Assembly (NCBI GenBank): GCA_028824015.1
Contig: JAPPFC010000017.1
Coordinates: 141,945 to 205,944, forward strand
DNA from: a bacterium
GTDB taxonomy: Bacteria > Actinomycetota > Acidimicrobiia > Spongiisociales > ZC4RG35
Reading direction: 5' to 3'
Length of the DNA: 64,000 nucleotides
Shown: positions 7,201 through 56,390 of the stretch, piece after piece
Layout of the letters: every line of letters starts with the position of its first letter
How positions within the stretch are numbered: the stretch's first letter is position 1
The notes under the pieces: model-generated
What the model saw: the letters and a program-made list of their open reading frames with translations, nothing else
What the model was told of the DNA's origin: nothing
The model's database searches: none
Program-made: the position numbers and the translations under genes

Positions 7201-7824
7201 TTATTCCGCGTCGTTCTCTCTGGTTACCTCCACCAGGGCTGCTCGTAGGAGCCGTCCATCCAGTCGATACCCGCGGCGCACCTCATTCGAGACTATCACT
7301 TCCCCGTCTCCCGGCGGTGGCGCATTGATCGGCTGGTGCAGATCGGGGGAGAAGCTCTCCCCGGCGGCTGGAATCATCTCCAGGCCCTGGCTCTGCAGTG
7401 TTGACAGCAGGAGTTCGTAGGTGGCCCTCATCCCCGATAGAACGCTCTGGTCCTTCTCTGAGGGGGCTTCCAGGACGAGGGCGGCGTCGAAGCTGTCCAG
7501 AACGGAAAGTAAGGAGGAGATCGTCCGGGCAGTGGCCTGGGAGGCAACAGTGGACTGCTCCCTGCGCATGCGCTTTCGGTAATTGTCCAGGTCGGCCAGC
7601 GCCCGCAGGTGGGACTGGTGGGCCTGGTCCGCTCTTTCCTCGGCCTGTCGGAGAGCCTCCAGCACGAACCCCAGCGCCTCGGCGGGGTCTGCGGGGAGGC
7701 CCTCCAGCCCGACCGGGAGGGTAGCGTCGGTTTCCGGGGTCGCCTCGACGGTGGCCTTTTCGGCTGCTTCCACCGTCGGGCGGCCGGTCGAGTCGTCAAC
7801 GTCGCGGTGCGAGTCGGCCATCAC
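7201..7824 (-). CDS. grpE: nucleotide exchange factor GrpE
   Basis: 207 aa; [13 protein letters not shown] core motif of GrpE; lies between dnaK and dnaJ. Confidence 0.85.
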
Positions 7825-10408: not shown

Positions 10409-12259
10409 ATGGCTGTTGACGTCCAACAAATCACTGGTATTGCTCGCTCTGTGAGTCAGCTTCTCTCCAACAGCCGGTACGGTCTCGACTTCTACCAAAG
10501 GGAATACACATGGAGGGAGACCGAGGTCGGCGAACTCGTGGATGACCTGGTCGGGCGCTTCCTCGACGAGTTCGACCCAAGTCATGAGCCGACGCAGGTA
10601 CTCTCGTATCGGCCCTATTTCCTCGGCCCGATTGTGACAGCCCAGCGCGACGGCGTTCGGTATCTAGTAGACGGACAGCAGCGAATCACAACACTCACCC
10701 TGCTGCTGATCCATCTCCGTCACGCCTTGACTCTAGAACACCCAAAAGACAGCGGTGCGCTCAACTCTCTCATTTTTTCTTGGCAGATAGACAAAGAAAC
10801 GTTCAATCTTGATGTTGATGAGCGGCATGCGTGTATGTCGGCGATCCTGGAGGGCATTGAATTCGATTCCCATGAACAATCGGAGTCCGTCCGGAATATC
10901 TGGGACAGGTACAAGACCATCGAAGAGCGATTTCCTCATCAGGATCTAAAGGAAAAAGCACTTCCCTTCTTCACCAATTGGCTTCAGCACAGGGTGATTC
11001 TGGTTGATATCGGCGCGGTGGACCAGGATATGGCTCTTGAGATATTTGAGACTATGAACGACCGGGGGCTACGCCTCACCAACACTGACATGTTGAAGAG
11101 CTACCTGCTGGCGCGGGTCCGAGACGAGGACCAGATTCGGAAGTTGAACGACCTCTGGCGTCGCAGAACCACTGAGTTGGCCGACGCTGAAAAAGATGCC
11201 CCCGCCGAGTTTATGAAGGCTTGGCTTCGCGGTAACTATGCGGAGTCCCAGCGTCAGCGCAAGGCGAAAGCGGCGCCCGGCGACTTTGACATCATCGGGA
11301 CGGCCTTCCACAAATGGGTCCGGGACCATGCTGAGATGATCGGGCTCAAACGGACGCCAGACTTCAGGCGGTTTGTCGAATACGAATTCGATGGGCTCAG
11401 CCGCCGCTATCTACAGCTTCTCGATGCTTGTCATGACCTCAAGCCGGGACTAGAAGCTGTTTTCTACAATGCCGGAAACGGGTACACCCTGCAGCTCCCG
11501 GTGATTCTGGCAGCTATTACACCAGAGGACAACGACGCCGCCTTTCGAGAGAAGGCGGCTTTGGTCGCAGGAGCGCTCGACATCTTCGTGGCTCGTCGGA
11601 TGGTGAATTACCGCTATTTCGGATATAGCACGGTCGTGTACACGATGTTCAACCTCATGAAAGACATACGAAATCGTGCCACCGATGTGGTGAGGGAGAT
11701 TCTCACTGGGTGGCTAGCGGGTGAAAAGGAGCGGGTAGAGGGAATCCGGCATCTTCGACTCACTCAACGCAACCGTCGACACATCCACTATCTGCTGGCG
11801 CGGGTGACATCCTGGCTTGACAGCGAAATGGGGAAGGGTATACCGACCTTTCCCGACTACGTGAACCGGCATAGCAAGGATCCCTACGAGGTCGAGCACA
11901 TCTGGGCCGATCACTTCGAGTGGCACGAATGCGAATTCGACAACACCTATGAGTTCGGCGAACACCGCAACAAGATTGGGGACCTCCTGCTACTCCCCAG
12001 AAGCTTTAACCGCAGCTATGGCGATATGCCATATTGCCAGAAGGTTGATCACTATAACTCCCAGAACCCACTGGCTCGGTCGCTGCACCCATTGGCATAC
12101 CAAAACAATCCCAACTTCCTTGGGCTCATCAACACCTACAATCTCCCCTTCAAGCCATATCCATGTGCCTTCACCAGGACCGACATTGATGAGCGCCAAG
12201 AGTTGTACCGGAATCTGGCTGAGGTGATATGGGATCCTGCGCGCCTCGGCCTTGGCTAA
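10409..12259 (+). CDS. DUF262 (ParB-like NTPase) + DUF1524 (HNH-like nuclease) protein; GmrSD/type IV restriction-like defence nuclease
   Basis: 616 aa; the N-terminal YQREYTW and DGQQRITTL motifs are DUF262 hallmarks and the C-terminal EVEHIW...H...N region is DUF1524-like. Local GC is clearly lower than the flanks. Confidence 0.75.
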   Translation: MAVDVQQITGIARSVSQLLSNSRYGLDFYQREYTWRETEVGELVDDLVGRFLDEFDPSHEPTQVLSYRPYFLGPIVTAQRDGVRYLVDGQQRITTLTLLLIHLRHALTLEHPKDSGALNSLIFSWQIDKETFNLDVDERHACMSAILEGIEFDSHEQSESVRNIWDRYKTIEERFPHQDLKEKALPFFTNWLQHRVILVDIGAVDQDMALEIFETMNDRGLRLTNTDMLKSYLLARVRDEDQIRKLNDLWRRRTTELADAEKDAPAEFMKAWLRGNYAESQRQRKAKAAPGDFDIIGTAFHKWVRDHAEMIGLKRTPDFRRFVEYEFDGLSRRYLQLLDACHDLKPGLEAVFYNAGNGYTLQLPVILAAITPEDNDAAFREKAALVAGALDIFVARRMVNYRYFGYSTVVYTMFNLMKDIRNRATDVVREILTGWLAGEKERVEGIRHLRLTQRNRRHIHYLLARVTSWLDSEMGKGIPTFPDYVNRHSKDPYEVEHIWADHFEWHECEFDNTYEFGEHRNKIGDLLLLPRSFNRSYGDMPYCQKVDHYNSQNPLARSLHPLAYQNNPNFLGLINTYNLPFKPYPCAFTRTDIDERQELYRNLAEVIWDPARLGLG

Positions 12260-23794: not shown

Positions 23795-25531
23795 CTATAA
23801 GAGACCCCGACGCTCCGATCGGAGCGCCTCGGTGGCACTCTCATCCATCTGATAGTCCTCCGGGAGGCGGACCATCCGTTCGGCCGGTCCCGTGTAGCGG
23901 ATCACCACCCCGTAGTCCCGCTGCGCCCCGGCCACCGAGACGTATCCGTCCACCACGTCGGCCAGCACCATGGCGGGGTCTCGGTCCAGCGGATCGCCGA
24001 AACCCCCGCCGCCGGGAAGGTTGAGTTGCACTCGCTGATCCGGCCGGAGCGTCAGCAGCGCCTTGGGCTGGCCCCTCTCCTGGCCGGCGAGGAGAAACTC
24101 CCCTCGTGCGCCCGGTCCGCCTCCCAGCATCCCCTCGGGTGGATGGTTGATCCGGTCCACCATGGCCGAGACCGTCCATGCCTCCTCGGTGCGACATCCC
24201 ATCTCGGTGTACTGTCCAAGACCCCCCCGGTAGCGGCCCGGCCCTCCGGAGTCGGGACGGAGTTCCCGGCGGTGCTGGATCAGCGACGAGAGGGTCTCCA
24301 CGGCTTCGGCGGGCACGCCCGCCACCCCGCTGGGGAAACCGGTCGCGCTGAGGCCGTCCTTTCCGGCCCGGGCGCCTCCGCCTCCGCACTGGAAGAGACT
24401 GAAGGTGAACAGGTCTTGCTGGTCGGCAGGCCGGCCCCGCCAGACGCTGATCCAGATCGGGTCGGATCCGGCCGCCATCAGGGGCAATGCCTCCGCCAGC
24501 GCCCCGAAGATCACGCCCGGCAGGAAGTGTCCCAGGATGTGGCGCGAAGCCACCGCGGCGGGCGGTCGGCAGTTGAGGATGGAGCCGGGGGGAGCGGAGA
24601 CATGCACCGGCCGGAAAGCGCCCTCGTTGTGGGGCACCTCGGGGCTGACCGCCGCCTTCATGGCGAAGGAGGCGTAGGCGTGGGTGTAGTTGAAGACCAC
24701 ATTGATCCCTCGCCTGCTCTGGGGCGAGGAGCCGGCGAAGTCGATGTGGATATCCCGGTCCTCGACTACTACCGCCACTTTGATCCTGATCGGTTCCTCG
24801 AACCCGTCGCTCCAGGTCTCGTGCTCGTAGCGGCCGTTCGGGATGGTCTCGATCGACCGGCGCATCGCCTCCTCGGAGCGGTCCATTATCTCACGGGCGA
24901 CCGGATCGATGGAGTCCAGGTCGAACTCATCCATGAACTCGAGGAGCGCGCGGGCGCCCACCTCGTTGCTGGTGGTCTGGGCGTACAGGTCGCCAACCGT
25001 CTCGTCGGGAGTGCGCACGTTGGCCCGGATCAGCCTGATGAGATCCCGGTTGATCTCGCCTGCCCGGAACAGTTTCATGATGGGCAGTCGCAGTCCCTCC
25101 TCATAGACCTCGCGGGCCTCGGCGGAGAGGATCCTGCCTCCTATGTCTGCCGCGTGGCAGGTGTTGGCGAAGTACCCGACGATCCTCCCCCCCCGGAACA
25201 CCGGGGTGGCGACGGTGATGTCGTTGATCTGCCCGGCGGTCATCCACGGGTCGTTGGTGAGGAGCACATCGCCTTCAACCAGCCGATCGGGAGGGTATTC
25301 GGCCAGCAGATGACGCATCCCGGTGGCCATGGCGTTGATGTGGCCCGGGGTGCCGGTGAGCGACTGGGCCACCATGGCGCCTTCGGTGTTGAACACCCCG
25401 CAGGCCAGGTCCTGGGTCTCGCGGACGATGGTGCTGAACGCGGTCCGCATCAGGGCCACCTGCTGTTCGTTCACCACCGAGAGGAGCCTGTTCCACAGAA
25501 CTTCCAAGAAGATGGGGTCCATCCCGCTCAT
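23795..25531 (-). CDS. hyuB: hydantoinase B / 5-oxoprolinase family protein
   Basis: 578 aa; family-typical N-terminus (DPIFLEVLWNRL...) and length; directly downstream of hyuA with a 4-nt overlap. Confidence 0.85.
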   Translation of the reverse strand: MSGMDPIFLEVLWNRLLSVVNEQQVALMRTAFSTIVRETQDLACGVFNTEGAMVAQSLTGTPGHINAMATGMRHLLAEYPPDRLVEGDVLLTNDPWMTAGQINDITVATPVFRGGRIVGYFANTCHAADIGGRILSAEAREVYEEGLRLPIMKLFRAGEINRDLIRLIRANVRTPDETVGDLYAQTTSNEVGARALLEFMDEFDLDSIDPVAREIMDRSEEAMRRSIETIPNGRYEHETWSDGFEEPIRIKVAVVVEDRDIHIDFAGSSPQSRRGINVVFNYTHAYASFAMKAAVSPEVPHNEGAFRPVHVSAPPGSILNCRPPAAVASRHILGHFLPGVIFGALAEALPLMAAGSDPIWISVWRGRPADQQDLFTFSLFQCGGGGARAGKDGLSATGFPSGVAGVPAEAVETLSSLIQHRRELRPDSGGPGRYRGGLGQYTEMGCRTEEAWTVSAMVDRINHPPEGMLGGGPGARGEFLLAGQERGQPKALLTLRPDQRVQLNLPGGGGFGDPLDRDPAMVLADVVDGYVSVAGAQRDYGVVIRYTGPAERMVRLPEDYQMDESATEALRSERRGLL

Positions 25532-27648
25532 TCTCCGACGTCCCCTACGCCTGGTGTCACCACCAGGTTCAATTGAGAGTCCACCCGGATGCGGGCCCCC
25601 GGGCCCACCACCGCGGTCGACTCCCGTTCCTCGATGATGGCCTGCCCGGTCATCTCGTCGCCCGGCCTCAGCAGGTAGCGGTCGTAAACCGGCGTGTCCC
25701 GATAGTCCGAGTACTCCGGGAAGTAGGCCGGTCTCATTCCCTTCAGTGCGCCCCGGTCGGCAGGAGGCGGGTCACCGGTCGGTTGGTGGATGCTGGGCGC
25801 CGGCCCGGAACTCACCACCCTCCAGGTGAGCGCCTCCAGTCCTACTGCGGGGCCTGACCGTCCGTAGAGCTCCCGATAGACCCGGTCAAAGCTCTGCTGC
25901 AGGGGCAGTTCGTCATCCTCTCCCAAGGACCCTCCGGGTACCGGGACCCGAACCTCGTGGCCCTGTCCTATGTAACGGATGTCGACGCTGCGGGCGTGGG
26001 TGATCTCATCCGGGACCACCCCCGATGCGGTCAGCAGTTCGGTTCCCTGCCTTTCGAGATAAGCAAACAGCCGGTTGAGGTACTCCCAGTCGAGGTCGTC
26101 CAACCGGGCATAGTGGGATTGGACGAAATCGAATGCCAGGGGAGCGACCAGGAAACCCAACGCCGAGGTGACCCCGGCGGAAGGGGGGAGGACCAGAGAG
26201 GGGCTGCCGGTCAGTTCCGCAACCCGGTATCCGTGCACCGGCCCCGCCCCCCCGAAGGCGGCCAGCGGCAACGACCGGGGACTCTTGCCCCGCTCCACGA
26301 CATGCACGCGGGCGGCGTTGGCCATGTTCTCATTCACCAATTGGTGGATCCCCCACGCCGCCTCGGTCACCGACAGCCCCATCGGTCCGGCGATCCGGGC
26401 CTCGATGGACCGGCGGGCCGCTTCGGCGTCGAGTTCCATGCGGCCGCCCAGGAAGTAGTGAGGATCGAGGTATCCGAGGACCAGGTCGGCATCGGTGACG
26501 GTCGGCTGGGTCCCGCCCAGGCCATAGCACACCGGTCCCGGGTCCGATCCGGCCGACTCCGGTCCGATCTTTAGCAGTCCGAGTGGGTTGATCCGGGCGA
26601 TCGAGCCTCCTCCCGCCCCGATCTCGATCATCTCGATCACCGGCACCTTCACCGGCAGACCCGAGCCCTTCCGGAACCGGTACCGCCGGTCGACCTCGAA
26701 GTCGTATGTGACTGCCGGACGCCGGTCGGCGATCACGCACAGCTTGGCGGTGGTGCCCCCCATGTCGAAGGAGAGCAGGTTGTCCACCCCGGCGTCCGCA
26801 CCGAGGGACGCGGCCGCCAGCGCCCCTGCGGCCGGGCCGGATTCCAGCAGCCGGATGGGGAAGCGGGTGGCGGTATCCACGGTGGCTATACCACCCGACG
26901 ACAGCATCACGAAGAAGGATCCCTCGAACCCCAGATCGGAGAGGCGGCCCTCCAATCCCGACAGGTATTGCTCGGCGAGGGGCTGGACGTAGACGTTGGC
27001 GATGGTGGTGGAGGCGCGTTCGTATTCACGGATCTCAGGTGCCACCTCCGATGAGATCGAGACCCGCATCCGGGGAGCGGCGCGGTTCACTGCCCGGCGA
27101 GCGGCGCGTTCGTTGGCGGGATTGGCGAAACTGTGGAGAAAGCTGATCGCCACCGCTTCGATCCCCCGCTCGGCCAACTCGGCGGCGAGGGCCTCCACAA
27201 ACTCCTCGTCAACTTCCCGAAGCATCTCGCCCCCCGCCGCCATCCTTTCGGGAACGTCGAATCGAAGATGGCGAGGGGTGAGGGGAACGGGCATCTCCAG
27301 GAACAGGTCGTAGAGTTCGTAGCGGTGCTCCCGTCCGATCTCCACCGAGTCCCGGAAACCCCGGGTGGCCAGCAGAGCGGTGCTGGCGCCCTTGCGCTCG
27401 ATGATGGTGTTGGTCACCAGAGTGGTCCCATGCACCAGGTGCCTGACGTCCGACGCCCGAAGGCCTGATCTGTCAAGAGCCCGGACCAGGACTTCTTCCA
27501 CTCCCCGGGAAGGATCGTCGGGGGTGGTCAGGACCTTGCCCACCACCGTCTCTCCGGACAGGTCGTCGATCAACATCAGATCGGTGAAGGTGCCTCCGAT
27601 GTCAACCCCGATGCGAAAAGTGGCCGCTGGCGAGCCGGATGTCTTCAT
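25528..27648 (-). CDS. hyuA: hydantoinase A / 5-oxoprolinase family protein (ASKHA fold)
   Basis: 706 aa; N-terminal IGVDIGGTFTD actin-like ATPase motif typical of HyuA. Confidence 0.85.
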   Translation of the reverse strand: MKTSGSPAATFRIGVDIGGTFTDLMLIDDLSGETVVGKVLTTPDDPSRGVEEVLVRALDRSGLRASDVRHLVHGTTLVTNTIIERKGASTALLATRGFRDSVEIGREHRYELYDLFLEMPVPLTPRHLRFDVPERMAAGGEMLREVDEEFVEALAAELAERGIEAVAISFLHSFANPANERAARRAVNRAAPRMRVSISSEVAPEIREYERASTTIANVYVQPLAEQYLSGLEGRLSDLGFEGSFFVMLSSGGIATVDTATRFPIRLLESGPAAGALAAASLGADAGVDNLLSFDMGGTTAKLCVIADRRPAVTYDFEVDRRYRFRKGSGLPVKVPVIEMIEIGAGGGSIARINPLGLLKIGPESAGSDPGPVCYGLGGTQPTVTDADLVLGYLDPHYFLGGRMELDAEAARRSIEARIAGPMGLSVTEAAWGIHQLVNENMANAARVHVVERGKSPRSLPLAAFGGAGPVHGYRVAELTGSPSLVLPPSAGVTSALGFLVAPLAFDFVQSHYARLDDLDWEYLNRLFAYLERQGTELLTASGVVPDEITHARSVDIRYIGQGHEVRVPVPGGSLGEDDELPLQQSFDRVYRELYGRSGPAVGLEALTWRVVSSGPAPSIHQPTGDPPPADRGALKGMRPAYFPEYSDYRDTPVYDRYLLRPGDEMTGQAIIEERESTAVVGPGARIRVDSQLNLVVTPGVGDVGE

Positions 27649-27785
27649 GAAAGCGTCAAGCGAGGGAGGGTCGGGGAATCGGAACTGAATTCAGGTTACT
27701 GCCCCGGGTGTTTGGGGCTCATCAGGGTATTCGGATGGGTGGATCCAAAGCCGGATCCAGGTAGGGGGCTGGCACATAGTCTGGG

Positions 27786-28685
27786 GTGGGAATGACCTCG
27801 TCACCGAATCCCACCTCCCTGTCCCGGCGCCCCGGCTTGGGTTTCGCCATGGCGTTGACGGGCGGAGTCCTGTTCGGTATCGCCGACACCGTGGCGGCCA
27901 GCCTCTTCTCAAAGATCAGTCCGGCCGAACTGAACCAGTACCGGCTGGTGCTGGCGGCGGTCTTCATCTCCGCCATCGCGGCTCGAAGGGGCCTGACGCA
28001 TCACGGGGGGATGCTCGGGTGGCTGGTGCTTCAAGGGATCATCACCGCGGTGATCACCTTTGTCTTCTTCGTGGCGGTCGAACGCCTGGGAGTGGGACCG
28101 GGGATCACCATCCAGTATCTGGGACCGATCCTGATGCTGATGTGGCGGCGTTTCGTGCAGGATCTGGCGGTGCCGATCACCGGCTGGATGGGAGCGGCGG
28201 CGGCCGTGGTGGGAATCGGGCTGATAACCGGCGCCTTCACCGCCGACTACGCCGATGCGATAGGGGTGGCGGCCGGTTTGGCGGCTGCAGTGTCCTACGC
28301 CGCGCTCACCATCGTGGGCGAGAAGCTGGGGAAGACCCTCCATCCGCTCACGTACAGTTCCTACAGCCTGACCGTTGCGGCGGTGATCTGGCTGGCGATT
28401 CTGCCGGTGAGAGTCCCCCAACTCTCGATCGCCGGCTGGCTGGGAGTCGGTTGGGTGTCGATCATCGCCATGGGGATCGGGTACCTGCTCCTGATGAGTT
28501 CCCTACGCCACATCAGTCCCGGCCCGATGGGAGTGGCCGCCACCTCCGAGCCGATAGTGGGCACACTGACCGCCTGGGTGGCATTGAGCCAAGCGCTGTC
28601 CCTGGTGGAGACGGCCGGCGTGACGCTGACTGCCTTGGGGATTGCTGTAGTGCATTGGAGCATCCGCAGGACCCCCGGTTTCTAA
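27786..28685 (+). CDS. DMT-superfamily (EamA-like) transporter
   Basis: 299 aa, ~10 predicted TM helices in two EamA-like halves. Confidence 0.75.
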   Translation: MGMTSSPNPTSLSRRPGLGFAMALTGGVLFGIADTVAASLFSKISPAELNQYRLVLAAVFISAIAARRGLTHHGGMLGWLVLQGIITAVITFVFFVAVERLGVGPGITIQYLGPILMLMWRRFVQDLAVPITGWMGAAAAVVGIGLITGAFTADYADAIGVAAGLAAAVSYAALTIVGEKLGKTLHPLTYSSYSLTVAAVIWLAILPVRVPQLSIAGWLGVGWVSIIAMGIGYLLLMSSLRHISPGPMGVAATSEPIVGTLTAWVALSQALSLVETAGVTLTALGIAVVHWSIRRTPGF

Positions 28686-28742
28686 GCGAGAACCACCCGA
28701 TGCCTGATCGTGGCGGGACCCAACGGTTAGTTCCCTACCTGG

Positions 28743-29435
28743 TCACCTGCCCATTGTCGAGGGGAGGGCGCTCCCCTTTAGGAACTTCACGCCAAGCATG
28801 ACGAACCAGGCCACCCAGGGGAAGTAGCAGGCTCTGGCCACACTGATCATGGCAGGGCTCGCTCCGGTCTGGCCGATGATGAAGGCGACTAGGGCAAGGA
28901 GCGAGACCGCGGCGATCACCAGAGCTGCATTCCTACTGAAACCGGGAGGATGTATGCCCGACATCCCCAGGCTGAAGGCGAGGACCCCGGTTGAGACCAC
29001 GACGCCCGAGAGGAGCGTGATGGCCGAATCCACTCTGTAGATAGGGATCGCCTGCTGAATACTCTGTTCAATGTCGATTGAAGTCTGGGCGAGGACGTGA
29101 GTCAGCCCGGCCGTGAGAATCCAGCCGGTGGCGCCCATCACCACGCACAGAATGCTCAGGCGTGACAGGGCGGCTGCCATCGTCTCTCCCTGGATCACCC
29201 GATTGACTCCTGCCAACCCGAAAAGCATCATCACCAGGCCCGGCGGCACCAGGAGCGCGGAGATGTGAGCCAATTCGCGGTTCGACGCAAGAGCGGTGAT
29301 AGTCCCAACGGCGTCGCCTATCTCTACGGGATCGATGAGTATCCCTCCCGGCTCCAGCAGAAAGAACAGCAACGCCAGCACAGGCCCCACAATCAGTCCC
29401 AGAGCTTCCAGTTTGTTGATTGTCTTCGTTGCCAT
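28743..29435 (-). CDS. hypothetical integral membrane protein
   Basis: 230 aa, multiple hydrophobic helices, no recognisable motif. Confidence 0.5.
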   Translation of the reverse strand: MATKTINKLEALGLIVGPVLALLFFLLEPGGILIDPVEIGDAVGTITALASNRELAHISALLVPPGLVMMLFGLAGVNRVIQGETMAAALSRLSILCVVMGATGWILTAGLTHVLAQTSIDIEQSIQQAIPIYRVDSAITLLSGVVVSTGVLAFSLGMSGIHPPGFSRNAALVIAAVSLLALVAFIIGQTGASPAMISVARACYFPWVAWFVMLGVKFLKGSALPSTMGR

Positions 29436-29606
29436 GGCTCTACCTCCTCAGGAAGAGTGTCGCCTTCTCGTTTCCAGTTACCGTCTTGCCCTTCCATCAA
29501 ATATATCCGACCGTAGAGTCCCAGCCTGTCCTATGGTCGGTTTTGGCTACTTTGTCACATCGCCCTTATAGCCTGTGCAGCGGGGTTTGAAGGAGGTCCC
29601 CTTTAA

Positions 29607-29945
29607 ATGGAGCGCGTAGACATTACGGAGTTGATCGCCCGGGCTCCCTGGCGGGAAGCGGTGACATATCGGAAGACCTGGCCTCACGAGTACGTGGTGA
29701 TCAAGAAGGACGGACAGCAAGCGCTGCTGGATGCGTTCTGTGCCCGGATCACCGCCGGGGAGGGCGTGGAATGCTGGTTCTTCCACCAGAAGCGCAAGTA
29801 CCTGTTCCTCGGGGGCTACAAGTATTGGACGATGACGGATTGCCCTGACATAGACCTCGAGAAAGACGACTACGTACTTAACCGGGCGCCCCTATACCGG
29901 GATCGCCGCGACTTCGTGATCCAACCCGGCGACAGGGGCATCTGA
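29607..29945 (+). CDS. hypothetical small protein upstream of fic (lower GC)
   Basis: 112 aa, good coding appearance, strong upstream GGAGG-like RBS (gaaggaggtcccc), no motif recognised. Confidence 0.45.
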   Translation: MERVDITELIARAPWREAVTYRKTWPHEYVVIKKDGQQALLDAFCARITAGEGVECWFFHQKRKYLFLGGYKYWTMTDCPDIDLEKDDYVLNRAPLYRDRRDFVIQPGDRGI

Positions 29946-30036
29946 AGGGAGCCAAACCCCGTGAGGTTCCACTTGCCTCATCCTTGACATCAATGCGGAC
30001 ACTAGAGTGGTCAAAACAACATGCTGTTAAGAAAAG

Positions 30037-31242
30037 GTGCTTATGCGCTCCTATTTGAATTCACATCCATGGATCACCTTCGAAGCCACAGACATCAACT
30101 CCCTCCATCCCAGGATCTGGATGCTCTTGGGCGAGGCGCGGTCCAAGTGCGAGCATCTTGCGGGAACTCCGCTCCAACCTGAGGTAGCAAAACACTTCTA
30201 CGAGGTAGCGCTGATCAAGGGGGCACAGGCGACCACGGCGATCGAGGGGAACACCCTCACCGAGGACCAGGTAGCCGGAATCCTGCGGGGGACCTTCCGC
30301 GCTCCCCCGTCTCGTGCATATCAGGAGCGGGAAGTCAAGAATGTGCTTGAGGCTCTGACCACTATCGCCCAACAGGTCGTGGACGGTGGTCTTCCCACCA
30401 TCACCAGCGAGTTGATCTGTGACTTCAACCGTCGGGTGTTGGAAGGCACTCAATACGAACCAGACGTTGTGCCCGGACGGATACGTGACTACCCGGTCGG
30501 CGTGCTGGATTACCGGGGCGCGCCGCCGGAGGACTGCCAGTACCTGGTCGACCGTCTGGCTGAATGGCTGGAGAGCGCCACATTCCGCTCAGAGGATGCT
30601 GAGATCCGATTTGCCCTGGCTGTTGCCTGCGCGGTCTACGCTCATCTTTACCTAGCGTGGCTGCACCCCTTTGGAGACGGAAACGGACGGACAGCCAGAC
30701 TTCTCGAGTTCTTGATCCTGGCAAGGTGCGGAATGCCGCTTCCGGTGGCTCATCTTCTATCGAACCACTACAACCTGACCCGAGACGAGTATTACCGTCA
30801 ACTGGCCGCAGCCAGCAGGACCCAGAAGACCCACGAATTCCTGGGCTATGCGATACAAGGACTGGTCGACGGCATTCGAGAACAAATCGAACAAGTGCTA
30901 CAGCAGCACTTCCGCGTGACCTGGCTCAACTTCGTGCATGAGACCATGAGGCAGTTCCCGTCGAGTCCGGCGCGAGACCGCCAAAGATCCCTGGTGCTCG
31001 CCATGCCTTCTGATGAGGAGATCCCCAAGAGGAACCTTCCCGAACTCACCCCGAAGCTTGCGCGTCTCTACGCCACGAAGGGACCCCGCACCTTGAGCCG
31101 CGACCTGAACAGGCTTCTGAGCGTCCAGTTGGTCGCCAAAGGACCCAAGGGATGGAGATCAAACGACAGAATTATCAGGGCCTTCCTGCCTCCGACGGCA
31201 GAATCCGTGACGGGGCTGGCGTTACCCGCTCCCATCTCCTGA
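30037..31242 (+). CDS. fic: Fic/Doc-family protein (class II, self-inhibited AMPylator-type)
   Basis: 401 aa; canonical FIC motif HPFGDGNGRTARL; an N-terminal inhibitory-helix-like TTAIEGN fits (S/T)xxxE(G/N). Confidence 0.8.
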   Translation: MLMRSYLNSHPWITFEATDINSLHPRIWMLLGEARSKCEHLAGTPLQPEVAKHFYEVALIKGAQATTAIEGNTLTEDQVAGILRGTFRAPPSRAYQEREVKNVLEALTTIAQQVVDGGLPTITSELICDFNRRVLEGTQYEPDVVPGRIRDYPVGVLDYRGAPPEDCQYLVDRLAEWLESATFRSEDAEIRFALAVACAVYAHLYLAWLHPFGDGNGRTARLLEFLILARCGMPLPVAHLLSNHYNLTRDEYYRQLAAASRTQKTHEFLGYAIQGLVDGIREQIEQVLQQHFRVTWLNFVHETMRQFPSSPARDRQRSLVLAMPSDEEIPKRNLPELTPKLARLYATKGPRTLSRDLNRLLSVQLVAKGPKGWRSNDRIIRAFLPPTAESVTGLALPAPIS

Positions 31243-31298
31243 CTCTGAGGAGAGTTCTGGCCCAGCTTTGTCCGGTGACTGTGCTCTTCTGCGTAGAG

Positions 31299-32195
31299 TC
31301 AGCCGACCATGTACCGGTGCGCTAACGAGTCGGCTATGGCGACACCGAACAGGAGCGCCAGATAGGCGATCGAGAACACATATAGAGCCTTGGCTCCCTC
31401 GATGCCATCCTCTCTCGCCAGTCGTACTGCCCGGACGATAAACCCCCCACCCAGGGCCAGAGCGCCGCTCAGGTAAATCCATCCGACCGCACCGGTTGCG
31501 GCGAAGGATGCAGAGAATGCGACCAGCACCACGGTGTAGAGCAGGATCTGGCGCTTGGTTTCCGCCAGGGTGGAGACGACGGGCAGCATCGGGATCCCGG
31601 CGCGGGCGTAATCGTCCTTGATCAACAGGGCGAGAGCCCAGAAGTGGGGTGGCGTCCACAAGAAGATGATCGCGAAAAGGTAATAGGCGGGAAGTTCAAG
31701 TGTTCCCGTCACCGCCGCCCATCCCACCAGAGGCGGAACGGCGCCCGCTGCACCTCCGATCACGATGTTCTGGGGTGTGGTCCGCTTGAGGCCCTTGGTA
31801 TAAACGAATATGTAGATGAGGGTGCCGCTGATGGCGAGAACGGCGCTGAGGACGTTGACGAAGAGAGCCAGGATCGCGAAAGCAGCCAGGTTGAGAGCAA
31901 TTCCAAAGACGAAAGCCTGCCGTTGCGAAACCCTGCCGCTGGCTACCGGGCGACGGTGGGTCCGTTGCATTCTCTGGTCTATGTCCCCTTCCAGACTGTG
32001 ATTGAGGGCATTCGCCCCACCCGCCGCCAGATAACCGCCCACCACAACCAGGGCGGCCAGGAGGGGATCGGGCCAGCCCTCCGATGCCAGGAACATGCTG
32101 CCCACCGCAGTAATCAGTAACAAGAAAATGATTCGGGGTTTGGTCAGGGCGACATAGTCCCGCAGTACGCGGGATACGGGACTCCCAGAGTCCAT
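31299..32195 (-). CDS. ctaB: protoheme IX farnesyltransferase (heme O synthase)
   Basis: UbiA-family TM protein; internal ATG at 32195 (MDSGSPV...LTKPRII) overlaps the ctaA stop (ATGA); the ORF-track start at 32636 is over-extended. Confidence 0.85.
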   Translation of the reverse strand: MDSGSPVSRVLRDYVALTKPRIIFLLLITAVGSMFLASEGWPDPLLAALVVVGGYLAAGGANALNHSLEGDIDQRMQRTHRRPVASGRVSQRQAFVFGIALNLAAFAILALFVNVLSAVLAISGTLIYIFVYTKGLKRTTPQNIVIGGAAGAVPPLVGWAAVTGTLELPAYYLFAIIFLWTPPHFWALALLIKDDYARAGIPMLPVVSTLAETKRQILLYTVVLVAFSASFAATGAVGWIYLSGALALGGGFIVRAVRLAREDGIEGAKALYVFSIAYLALLFGVAIADSLAHRYMVG

Positions 32196-33250
32196 CAGGC
32201 TGCGGTCCTCCCTCGTTTGGTCCTCACCCGGAAGGTTCCGGGATCGAAGTGGACCGCCATCATCAACACCATTGACACCCACGACAAAGTGGCGAACGTC
32301 AGATGCAGAGCCGCTATGAAAGGGGATGAACCCAACCACGCCGTAAACGCCCCTACTCCTATCTCGATCATCAGGAAACCGGCGGTGAGCACCGCCATCC
32401 AGCGCAGTTGCGCCAACGCCACTCCCCGTTTCCATGCCGCGATGCAGGCGCGAAAGACGAACACAGCCACGATCGCCACCATGTAGCGGTGGATCATGTG
32501 GATCAGGAAAGGAGTACCGGCAGGGTTGCGCTCGCCCAGGCAAAGCGGCCATCCGGAGCATATGGCTCCATACCCGACCCCCACCATGTAGGAACCGTAG
32601 AGGATGACCACCAGCAAACCGGCCAAGCCGGCCCATGCCATGGTCCGATCCCGTCTGGAAGCCTTGCTCTCAAGACTCTGTGAACGTCCGGGTTGGTCAC
32701 CCGGAGGACCGGCCAACCAGGCAATGGCGAGCGCGGCCACGGTCAGTTCGGCCAACCCAAGGTGGATCAGACGTGTCCACCAGGAGAGTTCGCTAAGGAC
32801 AGTGAGGCCACCCAGGATCGCCGCGGCGACCACCAGCACCATGCTCGCGCTCATGGCAAGCATCACCGGTTTCGATGTCCGGTAGTGCCGCCACGCCAGC
32901 ACCAGTGAAGCCAACACCAGGAGTCCCACCGCAGTCGCCACCAATCGGTGCGTGAACTCGAGCCAGATGTGGTAGTCGAACGGCGGGATGATCTGTCCGT
33001 GACAGAGCGGCCAATCAGGACACGCATCCCCCGAACCGGTAACCCGGACCACCCCACCCAGAACGATCTGTGCTATAGCCGCGATCAGGCTGAGCAGCGT
33101 GACTATCCGGTATCTTGCCTGACCGGCATGGGTACCGACTGCAACCTGCGGCATGACTGACTCGCTCCGGAATTCAAAAGGGGATTCTCTCGGAACGATC
33201 CCGAGCTTCCAGGACAGCCCTCCAGTAGCCACCGGATCGAATCCCTGCAC
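32195..33250 (-). CDS. ctaA: heme A synthase (COX15/CtaA)
   Basis: GGVVRVTGSGDACPDWPLCHG motif and multi-TM pattern; true start may be the internal Met at about 33154. Confidence 0.8.
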   Translation of the reverse strand: MQGFDPVATGGLSWKLGIVPRESPFEFRSESVMPQVAVGTHAGQARYRIVTLLSLIAAIAQIVLGGVVRVTGSGDACPDWPLCHGQIIPPFDYHIWLEFTHRLVATAVGLLVLASLVLAWRHYRTSKPVMLAMSASMVLVVAAAILGGLTVLSELSWWTRLIHLGLAELTVAALAIAWLAGPPGDQPGRSQSLESKASRRDRTMAWAGLAGLLVVILYGSYMVGVGYGAICSGWPLCLGERNPAGTPFLIHMIHRYMVAIVAVFVFRACIAAWKRGVALAQLRWMAVLTAGFLMIEIGVGAFTAWLGSSPFIAALHLTFATLSWVSMVLMMAVHFDPGTFRVRTKRGRTAA

Positions 33251-33321
33251 ATTTTAGTCTGTTTGCTAAAGCGGCCTCCTCAATGTCGGGCGAGGGCCAA
33301 TACAGGTACCGGGGTATGGAC

Positions 33322-33603
33322 CTACTCACCCAAAAGAGGAACGGGACCGTTCAGTGATCCCCGGTAGAACTCCTTGAAACGTTGGGCAGAGAATTGGTGA
33401 AGTGCCTTGACGCGCTCCCGTTCTTCGGCAGGAAAAGCGCACTCTTTCATGATGTCATCTACGGTGCTGGTCAGAAAGTCGAACCAGACCAGTCGGTCCT
33501 CGACGTAGTGCCCGACCGCGAAGGTGGTGTCGTGAGGATCGTAGGGGCCATGTCTGTCGATGAGGTCGCTCATCTCCCACCCCATCTCCTCGTCCTTATC
33601 CAA
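33322..33603 (-). CDS. hypothetical small protein
   Basis: 93-aa ORF, acidic, no motif recognised. Confidence 0.3.
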   Translation of the reverse strand: MDKDEEMGWEMSDLIDRHGPYDPHDTTFAVGHYVEDRLVWFDFLTSTVDDIMKECAFPAEERERVKALHQFSAQRFKEFYRGSLNGPVPLLGE

Positions 33604-33729: not shown

Positions 33730-34797
33730 CTATTCGTCTTGGCCCAACGCGGACTGGAACGCCCGCAGTGTTCGGTTATCGAAGCAGACGAAGCGGATTG
33801 ACTGCACATCGGTTGGGGTCCAGCGGACCATGTTCACGGCGATTCTTGCCGCCTCCTTGAGCGGGTAGCCGTGGGCGCCGGTGGCGAGGGCCGGGAAGGC
33901 CACGCTCTGGGCGCCTACCTCGTCGGCGCGGGCTAGGGCCTCGCGGTAGCACGACTCCAGGAGCACGGGCTCGCCTCGGTTTCCGCCCCTCCATTGCGGC
34001 GTGACGGTGTGGATCACCCAGCGGGCGTCCAGCCAGTAGCCGGGGGTGACCTTGGCGCGGCCGACGGGGCAACCACCGAGCGTCTTGCAGTGGGCGAGGA
34101 GTTCCGGGCCCGCTGCTTTGTGGATAGCCCCGTTGACTCCGCCTCCATAGGACAGCCTTGTATTGGCGGGGTTGACGATGGCGTCCACATCTTCGGCTGT
34201 GATGTCGCCGAGTACGGCTTCGATGGTGGGTCCGCTATACCCGACTATCGGGAGCGAGATGGGTATTGGTTCCCCGGATACGTGGACTATCAGGTCCCTG
34301 AGAAAGTCGCGCTCTCCGATCGGGTCAAACTCCTCCGGGCTGTAGCGGCGGGGATCGCTTTCGACCCTCGCCGAGGTGGGCATGAAGCCGGTCTCGTCGG
34401 TCCAGCTGAACCCTTTGGCTGCGAAGGTCACCTCATAGATGCCATAACCGGTCCAACTCCGGTGAAGGAACAAACGGTTGTCCTCCATGAAAGCCAGCCA
34501 CTTGTCGTTCATGTCGATGGGCCTGTATCCCTTGGCGATCTCCTGCATCTCCTCTCGGGAGAGGATCATCTCCGGTGGCGGGATTGTGACCGGCGCTCTG
34601 ATAGGGGAGACACACAAGCAATGGTCATCGTGTGTGTCACCCTCCGAGCAGGATCCCCAATCGTTCCTGCCGAAGACCCGCTCGGGTGGTCCCTCCGGTC
34701 CCCACAGCGCCATGCTGAACAGGCTCGGCGGTGGTCTCTCCGGACCGTCGGAGCCGCCGTTGGCCTCTCCTCCTTCGTCCGATGGTTCCTCTGCCAT
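33730..34797 (-). CDS. two-domain protein: uncharacterised N-terminal domain fused to C-terminal MacroD-type macro domain (ADP-ribose binding/hydrolase)
   Basis: Start taken at internal ATG 34797 (MAEEPSDEGG). The C-terminal ~170 aa (LGDITAEDVDAIVNPANTRLSYGGGVNGAIHKAAG...) is a typical macro domain. The N-terminal ~180 aa is unassigned. Confidence 0.65.
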   Translation of the reverse strand: MAEEPSDEGGEANGGSDGPERPPPSLFSMALWGPEGPPERVFGRNDWGSCSEGDTHDDHCLCVSPIRAPVTIPPPEMILSREEMQEIAKGYRPIDMNDKWLAFMEDNRLFLHRSWTGYGIYEVTFAAKGFSWTDETGFMPTSARVESDPRRYSPEEFDPIGERDFLRDLIVHVSGEPIPISLPIVGYSGPTIEAVLGDITAEDVDAIVNPANTRLSYGGGVNGAIHKAAGPELLAHCKTLGGCPVGRAKVTPGYWLDARWVIHTVTPQWRGGNRGEPVLLESCYREALARADEVGAQSVAFPALATGAHGYPLKEAARIAVNMVRWTPTDVQSIRFVCFDNRTLRAFQSALGQDE

Positions 34798-34912
34798 GCT
34801 CTCACTCCGTTTTCCTGCTTCTGCTCTGTTCTCTACTCTCGATTCAAGCACCCCCCTGTGACACTTTCCACACGGAACCGGTCGCAACGTGATAGGGGGT
34901 AGGGTGTAGACG

Positions 34913-35764
34913 GTGACGACATCGGTGACGATCACGGGCACGGGGATGCCGGTCCCGTCGCCGGAAAGGGCGGGGCCGGGGGTCTTGGTGCGGTCACGGG
35001 GAGCCGCACTGCAGTTCGATGCGGGTCGGGCCACCACTATGCGCTTGGCTGCTGTAGGTGTGTCGCCGGTCGATCTCGACGCAGTTTTCGTCACCCATCA
35101 CCACAGTGATCATGTCAGCGGCCTGGATGACCTGGTGATGTCTCGCTGGATAATGGACCGGCTGGATCAGGTGCCGGCCCTTCCGATTCTGGCCCCGGAG
35201 GGACCTGCCACCGACTTCTTGGAACGGATACTCGACCCCTGGGAGCACGATTTGGCCGTCCGGAGTGCACACACCGAGCGGGGCACCTATCCCGGTTACG
35301 AGGTCAGGCCCTTCGAGGCTGAGGACTCGCTGGTAGAGGTCTGGTCCCAAGGGGACGTTCGGGTGACAGCCGGACCGGTCCGTCATGAGCCGGTGACGCC
35401 GGCCGTGGGTTACCGGGTCGAGACGCCGGACGGGGTGGTGGCCGTCAGTGGAGACACCCTGGTGTGTCCGGAGGTGGCGGTACTGGCCGAGGGCGCCGAC
35501 GTGCTGGTCTACGAGGCGATGCGATTCGACCTGATCCGGGCCCTGCCGGACCACCTGCACTTCGTGCTTGACTATCACGCCGACACGATGCTGATCGGCG
35601 CCCAGGCGCAAGAACTTGAGATACCGACGCTGGTCCTGACGCACCTCATTCCAGAACCTATCACCGATGAGGATCGGCAGGGCTTCGTGGATGATGTCCG
35701 CCGAGGAGGCTTTGCAGGGCAGGTGATCGTCGCCGATGACCTCACCTCAGTCAATTTGGGATAG
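34913..35764 (+). CDS. MBL-fold metallo-hydrolase
   Basis: 283 aa; THHHSDH metal-binding motif. Confidence 0.8.
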   Translation: MTTSVTITGTGMPVPSPERAGPGVLVRSRGAALQFDAGRATTMRLAAVGVSPVDLDAVFVTHHHSDHVSGLDDLVMSRWIMDRLDQVPALPILAPEGPATDFLERILDPWEHDLAVRSAHTERGTYPGYEVRPFEAEDSLVEVWSQGDVRVTAGPVRHEPVTPAVGYRVETPDGVVAVSGDTLVCPEVAVLAEGADVLVYEAMRFDLIRALPDHLHFVLDYHADTMLIGAQAQELEIPTLVLTHLIPEPITDEDRQGFVDDVRRGGFAGQVIVADDLTSVNLG

Positions 35765-55793: not shown

Positions 55794-56390
55794 ATGATTG
55801 ACTCTATGTCTGTATTGACTGCTACTCGACGCCACCAGCTACTTAGAATCTTGAAGGAGAAGGGTTATCGCAGGCTGCCGGAGCAGGTCAAGCTGGCATC
55901 CGGTGAGTGGTCATTCGATTTTATTGATGGTAAGAAGGCCCTTGCTAAGTGGAGCGATCTCCGAGTCGCATGCGAGGCCATTGTCGAAGAAGTTTCAGAG
56001 GCCGGCCATCAGTTCGACGCGGTCGGTGGCCTAACTTTGGGTGCTGATGCTCTTGCTGTGGGAGTTGCTGCCGTCAGTGACACCAAGTGGTTTTTTGTTC
56101 GCAAAGAGCCAAAGAAACGCGGCACGCGACGTTTGATAGAGGGAGCTTCCCTTGGCAAGAAAGACAGAGTTCTCTTGGTCGACGATGTGGTGACAACAGG
56201 AGGGTCGATTTTCAATGCTCTAAAGGCAATTGAAGAAACGGAGGCCAAAGTCGTTGCGGCAGTAACGCTCGTGGATCGGGGAGATTCAGCAGAGCCGCGG
56301 TTCAAAGAAAAGGGTATTGCATACTTTCCCATGGCGAACTACAAGGATCTGGAAATCGAACCGGTTCGTTCTAAACGAGTCATTCAGTGA
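55794..56390 (+). CDS. type I phosphoribosyltransferase, orotate-PRTase (PyrE)-like, in a low-GC insert
   Basis: 198 aa; PRPP-binding motif VLLVDDVVTTGGS and an upstream KKRG...IEG block as in OPRTases. The gene and the ~70 nt upstream are markedly AT-richer than the flanks. Confidence 0.75.
   Translation: MIDSMSVLTATRRHQLLRILKEKGYRRLPEQVKLASGEWSFDFIDGKKALAKWSDLRVACEAIVEEVSEAGHQFDAVGGLTLGADALAVGVAAVSDTKWFFVRKEPKKRGTRRLIEGASLGKKDRVLLVDDVVTTGGSIFNALKAIEETEAKVVAAVTLVDRGDSAEPRFKEKGIAYFPMANYKDLEIEPVRSKRVIQ

Follow-up and report, generated by a model that had tools for sequence, protein, structure and literature searches.

MdgA and MdgB, two nucleases with a DUF4268 domain, have been validated as modification-dependent anti-phage enzymes that are each encoded by a single gene, and the accessible part of their description mentions neither an upstream accessory gene nor an N-terminal fusion domain (bioRxiv 10.1101/2025.02.28.640651). 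For the Fic protein SoFic, EF-Tu is named as the AMPylation target in the accessible part of a preprint (bioRxiv 10.64898/2026.07.09.737422), and the EcSofic gene of Escherichia coli is followed by a gene for AS1, an antitoxin of 47 amino acids (aa; PMC12249575). We analysed a stretch of 64,000 nucleotides (nt) from an Acidimicrobiia metagenome-assembled genome (assembly GCA_028824015.1, contig JAPPFC010000017.1, positions 141,945–205,944 of the forward strand; hereafter the window), in which an open reading frame (ORF) of 112 aa, hereafter the small ORF, precedes a Fic gene located beside ctaB. An initial sequence-only reading had regarded the two genes as a mobile module in a lower-GC islet. 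Our analysis favours, with a probability of roughly 0.6, a different reading: the locus is one slot of a fast-turnover defence islet rather than a two-gene element, and the small gene is an accessory of interchangeable effectors.

The window was compared with loci from public genomes, labelled L001–L094. Its nearest public relatives were L001 ('bacterium RHO1_bin_22') and L044 ('Acidimicrobiia bacterium SB0665_bin_24'). The locus comprises the following features:

29589–29596, + strand: Shine–Dalgarno (SD) sequence GAAGGAGG of the small ORF, 10 nt 5' of its ATG, as read from the sequence.
29607–29945, + strand: small ORF, 112 aa, member of an unannotated, strongly conserved family.
29946–29983, + strand: lineage-specific spacer 3' of the small-ORF stop, starting with AGGGAG (blastn and alignment against L001 and L044).
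29952–31295, no strand: 1,344-bp indel segment holding Fic only, present in the window, L044 and L087 and represented by 66 bp in L001.
29984–30042, + strand: conserved Fic 5' region (alignment of 13 Fic upstream regions).
29984–29989, 29996–30001 and 30008–30013, + strand: hexamer repeats TTGACA, CGGACA and TGGTCA in the Fic 5' region.
30043–31242, + strand: SoFic-like class II Fic, 399 aa from ATG 30043; the start in the ORF list is GTG 30037.
30232–30252, + strand: inhibitory-helix motif TTAIEGN, of the form (S/T)xxxE(G/N) (regular-expression match; FICD alignment).
30664–30699, + strand: Fic catalytic motif HPFGDGNGRTAR (regular-expression match), aligned to HPFIDGNGRTSR of FICD.

Locus L001, with approximately 95% nucleotide identity, was collinear with the window over 24003–29951 and 31296–33257 (blastn), and homology stopped at 29951. 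Its small ORF was intact, and the 1,344 bp that hold Fic and its spacers were replaced by 66 bp. The proposed insertion beside ctaB was thus confirmed for Fic and not for the small ORF, which L001 retains. No direct, inverted or terminal repeats and no target-site duplication were found at the junctions of the indel, nor was an integrase or transposase found near it. In a genome scan for relatives of the small protein, 80 loci were obtained, and a Fic gene was present within 6 kb in one of them (L044, a close Acidimicrobiia relative). Conversely, the small gene was present in one of 20 loci with Fic homologues of 39–98% identity (L087, essentially the same genome type as the window). The sequence-only reading had proposed the co-occurrence of the pair in other genomes as a check, and the small ORF proved not to be conserved with Fic homologues. 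The lower-GC islet was weakly borne out. The span of the small ORF and Fic had a GC content of 58.2% versus 63.6% for the window, but the z-scores among 48 long window ORFs were ordinary (small ORF: GC z = −1.17, GC3 z = +0.50; Fic: GC z = −1.35, GC3 z = −0.54), and the flanking membrane gene (60.5%) and ctaB (60.9%) were nearly as low. Neither gene was a GC or GC3 outlier (|z| < 1.4), and this check of GC and codon profile left the pair compositionally indistinct. Since the indel removes Fic only, linkage is limited to 1/80 and 1/20 loci and the composition is unremarkable, the small ORF and Fic do not form a module, whether conserved or co-mobile. Their adjacency is recent.

Left of the small ORF lie a divergent gene for a 230-aa membrane protein (no Pfam match), then an EamA transporter gene and hydantoinase A/B genes. 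Convergent to Fic on its right are ctaB (UbiA family) and ctaA, followed by a 93-aa ORF and genes for a Macro-domain protein and a metallo-β-lactamase (MBL)-fold protein. The hydantoinase–EamA backbone of the window was also present in L002, L085 and L086, where the small gene is accompanied by a DUF4268 nuclease gene. In L085 and L086 the gap between the two was 7 nt and Phd/YefM-PIN followed; L085 also had a MunI-like/Dam-type restriction–modification pair, and an MM-CoA mutase came next in L086. In L077, a C-terminal nuclease remnant alone was present, 23 nt after the small gene. The effector slot is reduced to 66 bp in L001 and is occupied by Fic in the window, L087 and L044; a nuclease or nuclease remnant was not found in the window. 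Four states of the slot (nuclease, nuclease remnant, empty and Fic) are thus seen among close relatives. They are most economically read as derived from an ancestral unit of small gene and nuclease, in which the effector slot was emptied or refilled and the small gene was kept every time. The locus neatly illustrates, in a natural setting, how defence genes turn over at a fixed chromosomal slot.

Two further observations were made on these relatives. L085 and L086 are located on one 2.73-Mb contig, near its two ends (at about 2.71 Mb and 0.11 Mb). Their copies of the hydantoinase–EamA–small gene–DUF4268 nuclease–Phd/PIN segment were nearly identical and followed by different genes, which points to either a true duplication of the segment or overlapping assembly ends of a circular chromosome. 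A 12-nt string, GAGAAGATCATG, was common to the 66-bp filler of L001 (6346–6411 of that locus) and to the 3' end of the L002 gene for the DUF4268 nuclease (about 7300–7350). L001 may thus keep the last codons of a deleted nuclease, for which this short match is slight evidence.

The small ORF is a real gene of an unannotated, uncharacterised and unusually conserved family. The strong ribosome-binding site attributed to it by the sequence-only reading was present, and so was the reported lack of a recognisable domain: the protein had no match in Pfam, NCBIfam, PADLOC or PHROGs, none among PDB sequences (phmmer and profile search), and a lax Pfam scan (E ≤ 10) of 18 diverse members returned nothing. 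No description of the family was met in a limited literature search. Clustered at 90% identity, the family comprised 1,558 homologous clusters, the best 120 of which were 75–96% identical to the window copy; at 50% identity there were 454 representative clusters. The homology was full-length, and the family motifs APWREA...WPHEY...YLFxGxYKYW...LNR..LYRDRRDF were all present in the window protein. The hosts belonged to Acidimicrobiia, Dehalococcoidia and other Chloroflexota, Gemmatimonadota, Alpha- and Gammaproteobacteria, Acidobacteriota and Spirochaetia. Many isolate names (RHO, APA, CAR, SB06xx, Plut) are presumably those of sponge or coral symbiont projects; a literature search retrieved no confirmation of this.

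Ratios of nonsynonymous to synonymous substitution rates (dN/dS) relative to the window copy were 0.04–0.15. Since synonymous sites were mostly saturated, the high identity of the small proteins indicates constraint on the protein. Residues W15, E28 and W74 were invariant in diverse members, and P14, P26, L40, F58, F67, Y73 and R93 nearly so. The Arg/Asp-rich C-terminal tail, LNRA.LYRDRRDFVIQPGDTG (LYRDRRDFVIQPGD.G), was nearly invariant across phyla, whatever the partner. Synonymous variation in this tail was normal, so that a hidden DNA or RNA element was rejected; the conservation acts at the protein level. A candidate metal site (H27/C45/C56/C79) was also rejected, since the cysteines were not conserved in diverse members. 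An AlphaFold2 model displayed an alpha/beta core of approximately 95 residues (pLDDT 83, pTM 0.78) and a low-confidence tail. In a Foldseek search of the PDB with this model no relative was found (best E = 0.4, TM < 0.3). The remote-homology and structure checks proposed by the sequence-only reading thus yielded a confident core with neither a known domain nor a PDB fold match.

The only credible structural relative was an unnamed 93-aa protein of an uncultured virus (BFVD A0A516LRX9; E = 6e-6, TM 0.58/0.68, 21% identity). The small gene had no IMG/VR locus and no match in 50,697 phage genomes. A distant member (L088; WP_013283156.1, 111 aa, NC_014390.1 138612–138947, hhalign probability 96%) was encoded on megaplasmid pCY186 of Butyrivibrio proteoclasticus, where McrB, McrC and a WYL-domain gene precede it and a 107-aa ORF and a HIRAN-domain gene follow. 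This was the only family member found in a replicon of a cultured organism and offers a tractable experimental system. With no match in IMG/VR or the phage genomes and this one distant plasmid member, a phage or plasmid origin of the small gene was rejected.

The neighbours of the small gene were surveyed in the 80 loci with a set of partner queries, within 600 nt of the gene. A partner match was obtained in 56 loci, and 55 of these neighbours were recognisable defence-type enzymes, nearly always downstream and co-oriented. The most frequent neighbour was a protein of about 320 aa with a NucS-like PD-(D/E)xK domain and DUF4268 (32 loci), followed by long and short PDDEXK_4 proteins (7 loci each), NucS_C proteins (3 loci), Cas4/PDDEXK_1-like proteins and Pol-beta-type nucleotidyltransferases (2 loci each), and an EEP nuclease, a Fic and an uncharacterised 230-aa protein (1 locus each). 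The remaining 24 loci had no recognised neighbour. According to PADLOC, the neighbours were single-gene phage defence candidates (PDC-S11, 2e-73; PDC-S26; PDC-S09) or Cas4-like. Most DUF4268-type loci had a gap of 18–28 nt between the small gene and its partner, and in about 30 loci such a gap went together with a fixed order and orientation. The small domain was also fused to the PDC-S11 nuclease in more than 40 diverged clusters (45–87% identical, 425–453 aa), and further fusions contained a short PDDEXK_4 nuclease, DUF4268 alone or an ADP-ribosylglycohydrolase. In the fusions the small domain is N-terminal.

Over the 32 loci with a DUF4268 partner, small protein and partner co-diverged (Mantel r = 0.81, a value reached in 0 of 2,000 permutations). 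The small protein evolved much more slowly, with a mean identity of 76% versus 52% for the partner. Clusters of small proteins mixed partner types; the window copy grouped with nuclease-partnered and orphan copies and had no Fic-specific changes. In a model of a fusion protein (P0136) both parts were folded and connected by a disordered 27-residue linker. A Foldseek search with this model identified the N-terminal part of the partner as a NucS fold, and the DUF4268 part (residues ~280–439) resembled the fold of YbjN and type III secretion chaperones (6vu7, 5fr7, 1jyo, 3kxy; E = 5e-4 to 1e-2). This predicted chaperone-like fold may bear on substrate or partner recognition by DUF4268 nucleases. 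No conserved third gene was found upstream of the small gene, where unrelated housekeeping genes were located, Gemmatimonadota excepted. In seven loci of Gemmatimonadota/Longimicrobiales (L027, L034, L035, L040, L045, L047 and L056, at about 4.7–6.0 kb in each), a fused HTH_3 and Peptidase_M78 (ImmA/IrrE-like) gene lay divergently upstream, perhaps regulating the small-gene/effector unit in response to damage.

The second gene of the locus encodes a Fic protein. We assigned proteins to Fic/Fido by the catalytic motif HxFx(D/E)GNGRxxR together with a PF02661 match above the gathering threshold, and the window protein had both (residues 208–219; E = 2e-15, 57.9 bits versus a gathering cut-off of 24). 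Its TTAIEG (residues 64–69, regular-expression match) lies N-terminal to the Fic core in the same chain, and TTAIEGN aligned with the TVAIEGN inhibitory helix of human FICD, which places the protein in class II. Self-inhibition had already been proposed by the sequence-only reading. The C-terminal extension it had put at ~150 aa comprises about 170 residues after the core; this part is conserved among homologues and within the PADLOC SoFic model up to residue 372. Starts of homologues coincided with ATG 30043 and not with GTG 30037, and the protein is therefore probably 399 aa long instead of 401. The PADLOC SoFic model PDLC03963 matched residues 25–372 (E = 5e-50), but the NCBIfam SoFic equivalog NF046030 gave 48 bits versus a cut-off of 550, for which reason we consider the protein SoFic-like in architecture and no SoFic orthologue. 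PDB matches were to FICD (5e-17) and to SoFic (6e-6, covering the Fic core alone). The Fic family contained 7,970 proteins at E ≤ 1e-10, typically of ~390 aa; the best 120 of these were 67–98% identical to the window protein, and their named sources were Acidimicrobiia, Actinomycetes or Mycobacteriales. Between the stops of Fic (31242) and ctaB (31299) there are ~56 bp, into which no ORF for an AS1-like protein fits.

Among its relatives, Fic occupied varied positions: between EamA and the membrane gene (L081, copy 1), between Macro and MBL genes (L081, copy 2; L090; L091), after an AMP-ligase gene beside McrBC (L082), beside DndB/SNF2 (L083) and beside AbiEii, HicB and TIR (L084). These neighbours include the defence genes McrBC, DndB/SNF2, AbiEii, HicB and TIR. 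We aligned 13 Fic upstream regions from differing genomic contexts. The ~60 bp before the start codon were conserved in all contexts, of which there were at least eight, and nothing past the stop codon was conserved across them. Because this 5' region is kept and positions vary among close relatives, we conclude that Fic is a self-contained unit that moves alone. In sum, the window Fic is an ordinary self-contained SoFic-like defence or toxin gene of known type and a recent arrival at the locus.

The conserved 5' region consists of three hexamers of the TGGACA/TGGTCA type followed by a −10-like TAGTAGAGT. All ten Fic copies located elsewhere had TAGTAGAGT or TAGTAATGT ending 6–8 nt before the start codon. 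Leaderless transcripts are common in Actinomycetota, and a −10-like element so near the start codon is compatible with them. The region looks like an operator with a leaderless-type promoter, and the C-terminal domain of Fic itself possibly binds the hexamers. The three copies behind the small gene (window, L087, L044) had an SD-like TAAGAAAAGG or TAAGGAGAGG instead of the −10-like element. No terminator-like site was predicted on the + strand between the small ORF and Fic. The swapped element and the missing terminator together suggest that, once it had landed there, Fic came to depend on read-through from the small gene.

These results led us to hypothesize the following course of events. 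In other genomes, the small gene opens a two-gene unit that is completed by a stand-alone immune effector, mostly a nuclease of the MdgA/PDC-S11 kind. Near-invariant sequence beside at least seven unrelated enzyme folds makes a specific inhibitor of each unlikely and points to a partner-agnostic accessory, which may be a sensing or regulatory module acting with whichever effector is co-expressed with or fused to it. The N-terminal position of the small domain in fusions fits a sensing, targeting or regulatory module, and the invariant aromatic and acidic residues together with the Arg/Asp tail fit the binding of a ligand, a nucleic acid or a host factor. The protein might bind an invariant ligand or nucleic-acid feature via the W15/E28/W74/Y73/R93 surface. 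In the Acidimicrobiia lineage of the window, some relatives would have lost the ancestral DUF4268 nuclease by deletion, and in the window branch Fic would have taken its place, bringing its own ~60-bp regulatory region. By analogy with SoFic, Fic might act against phages as a growth-arresting (abortive-infection) AMPylase that is kept off by its own inhibitory glutamate. Behind the small gene it appears to have swapped the −10-like element for the SD-like sequence and is probably expressed from the small-gene transcript.

Three other explanations were weighed against this. The small ORF and Fic might form one mobile, co-evolved module, for instance a toxin–antitoxin (TA) pair in which the small protein controls Fic. 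The genes are co-oriented, 91–97 nt apart and without a predicted terminator between them; the pair recurs in L044 and L087, exactly these copies carry the SD-like change, which suggests co-expression, and some SoFic genes have the small antitoxin AS1 (PMC12249575). Yet linkage fails in both directions and L001 lacks Fic only. The small protein has no (S/T)xxxE(G/N) motif and Fic carries its own, AS1 is encoded downstream of EcSofic and would find no room here, and the window copy groups with nuclease-partnered copies. We regard such a module as highly improbable. Another explanation sees the small protein as an antitoxin- or immunity-like brake, or as a CapRel-style sensing pseudo-antitoxin, that holds its downstream effector off until infection and may similarly restrain Fic in the window. 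An upstream small gene followed by a toxic enzyme is the layout typical of type II TA systems, the conserved tail is flexible, the viral structural relative could be a captured anti-defence copy, and the fused versions resemble fused toxin–antitoxin defence proteins. It is difficult, though, to see how one near-invariant protein could be a specific inhibitor of seven or more unrelated enzyme folds. In E. coli, MdgA-type nucleases and SoFic function without a second gene, interfaces shaped by an arms race are not typically under strong purifying selection, and neither the AlphaFold2 model nor Foldseek revealed the DNA-binding fold typical of type II antitoxins. We consider a brake of this kind improbable.

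The small protein might also be functionally independent, a conserved protein that acts alone and simply tends to gather in variable or defence regions, so that adjacency has no mechanistic meaning. The 24 loci with no recognisable effector and the orphan small gene of L001, still under purifying selection (dN/dS 0.09), speak for this possibility and indicate that the protein may act independently of its neighbours. Moreover, its sequence is not adapted to the type of partner and is much more conserved than that of any partner. Independence is harder to reconcile with the short gaps and the fixed order and orientation, and without a shared function one would hardly expect old, independent fusions to three or more partner architectures; we consider independence unlikely. 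Besides the effector-less loci and the orphan, several further points weigh against an accessory with interchangeable effectors. The small protein has neither homology to a modelled family nor a PDB fold match, and so lacks an assignable biochemical function. Part of its co-divergence with the nuclease could stem from the host phylogeny that both share, and in the fusion model the small domain was not confidently docked on the nuclease (pTM 0.54). For Fic, the pairing is shallow and confined to the window, L087 and L044, and its gap is wide compared with the 18–28 nt typical of nuclease partners, so that any interplay between the small protein and Fic is unproven. The Fic score is far under the NCBIfam SoFic cut-off, and the promoter and SD assignments rest on sequence patterns. 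Our definition of a small-gene/effector unit was a co-oriented effector directly downstream, typically at 18–100 nt, or fused; the window Fic lies co-oriented at 91–97 nt, but in one shallow lineage, and it is autonomous elsewhere.

Other genes of the window deserve mention. The Macro-domain ORF (33730–35094, − strand) is adjacent to the MBL-fold ORF (34913–35764, + strand), with no Fic between them. In L081, L090 and L091 the Macro gene directly adjoins the Fic gene of this subfamily on its upstream side, in divergent orientation; it is one gene apart from Fic in L092 and 3.7 kb away in L094. The MBL-fold (Apyc1-like) gene is often located 3' of Fic in relatives. A functional pairing of Fic and Macro, conceivably modification and its reversal, may be the more meaningful partnership. 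At 454 aa the window Macro ORF is probably over-called at its N-terminus, as homologues have 260–358 aa. The 93-aa ORF (33322–33603, − strand) had no Pfam match, and homologues of it (77–92% identity, one diverged at 48%) occur directly beside Fic. They were listed in L082 (3505–3825), L087 (10003–10335), L089, L093 and L094, divergently upstream of Fic in L082, L093 and L094 and as two downstream copies in L089; some were also beside McrBC (L082, L087). The 93-aa ORF looks like another small gene travelling with the defence neighbourhood. Real GC outliers were found elsewhere in the window. A 616-aa GmrSD-type (DUF262/DUF1524) type IV restriction enzyme is encoded at 10409–12259 (+ strand; GC 0.546, z = −2.8), and the lowest-GC ORF, for a 198-aa phosphoribosyltransferase-domain protein at 55794–56390 (+ strand; GC 0.513, z = −3.8, GC3 0.513), may be a recent acquisition.

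The Fic gene alone adds little, as a further SoFic-like member of class II with defence genes around it. The small ORF is what makes the locus valuable: it has no model in Pfam, NCBIfam, PADLOC or PHROGs and no solved structural relative. Its family combines housekeeping-level constraint (dN/dS about 0.1, ~76% mean identity across phyla) with a fusion-supported tie to anti-phage nucleases of a validated type. While the Fic is of a known type, the small-protein family and its systematic coupling to single-gene defence nucleases appear to be new. If the small domain modulates or targets effectors, MdgA/PDC-S11-type defences have an overlooked second component. More tentatively, and at clearly less than even odds, the small protein could be a new accessory immunity domain, a plug-in sensor or regulator that has spread horizontally over at least eight phyla or classes. 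Its interchangeable effectors would comprise at least five nuclease families, a nucleotidyltransferase, an ADP-ribosylglycohydrolase and, here, a Fic AMPylase, and the locus would record a nuclease-to-Fic swap with rewiring of expression.

Compared with SoFic, EcSofic and FICD, the window Fic has the same catalytic motif, an N-terminal inhibitory motif with the conserved Glu and a C-terminal domain. It further resembles SoFic in the near full-length match to the PADLOC model, the defence neighbourhood and the single-gene behaviour. It differs in not being an orthologue, in a PDB SoFic match limited to the core and in the lack of a downstream AS1-like gene. The Actinomycetota/Acidimicrobiia subfamily of which it is a member has conserved operator-like 5' repeats of its own. 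The small co-oriented ORF immediately upstream is reminiscent of class I Fic TA systems (VbhT–VbhA, FicT–FicA). However, in the class II arrangement of the window the motif (S/T)xxxE(G/N) is present in cis in Fic and absent from the small protein, and the pair is not conserved. Within the small-protein family the motif was absent from the window copy and from all 18 diverse members, and present in 3 of 37 close members, apparently incidentally.

Nucleases of the MdgA/MdgB and PDC-S11 type are the usual partners of the small family, and L002, L085 and L086 carry one right after the small gene. The window differs in having neither such a nuclease nor a remnant of it, and MdgA and MdgB are described as single genes in the accessible part of their account. 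Lastly, as one conserved gene before many unrelated effectors, the small gene resembles the regulators BrxR/WYL and the CapH–CapP type with HTH and M78. The likeness extends to the divergent HTH–M78 gene in Gemmatimonadota and to the Butyrivibrio member, which is located beside a WYL regulator and McrBC. In contrast to these regulators, the small protein has no HTH, WYL or detected DNA-binding fold, and its occurrence in fusions with effectors would be unusual for a transcription factor.

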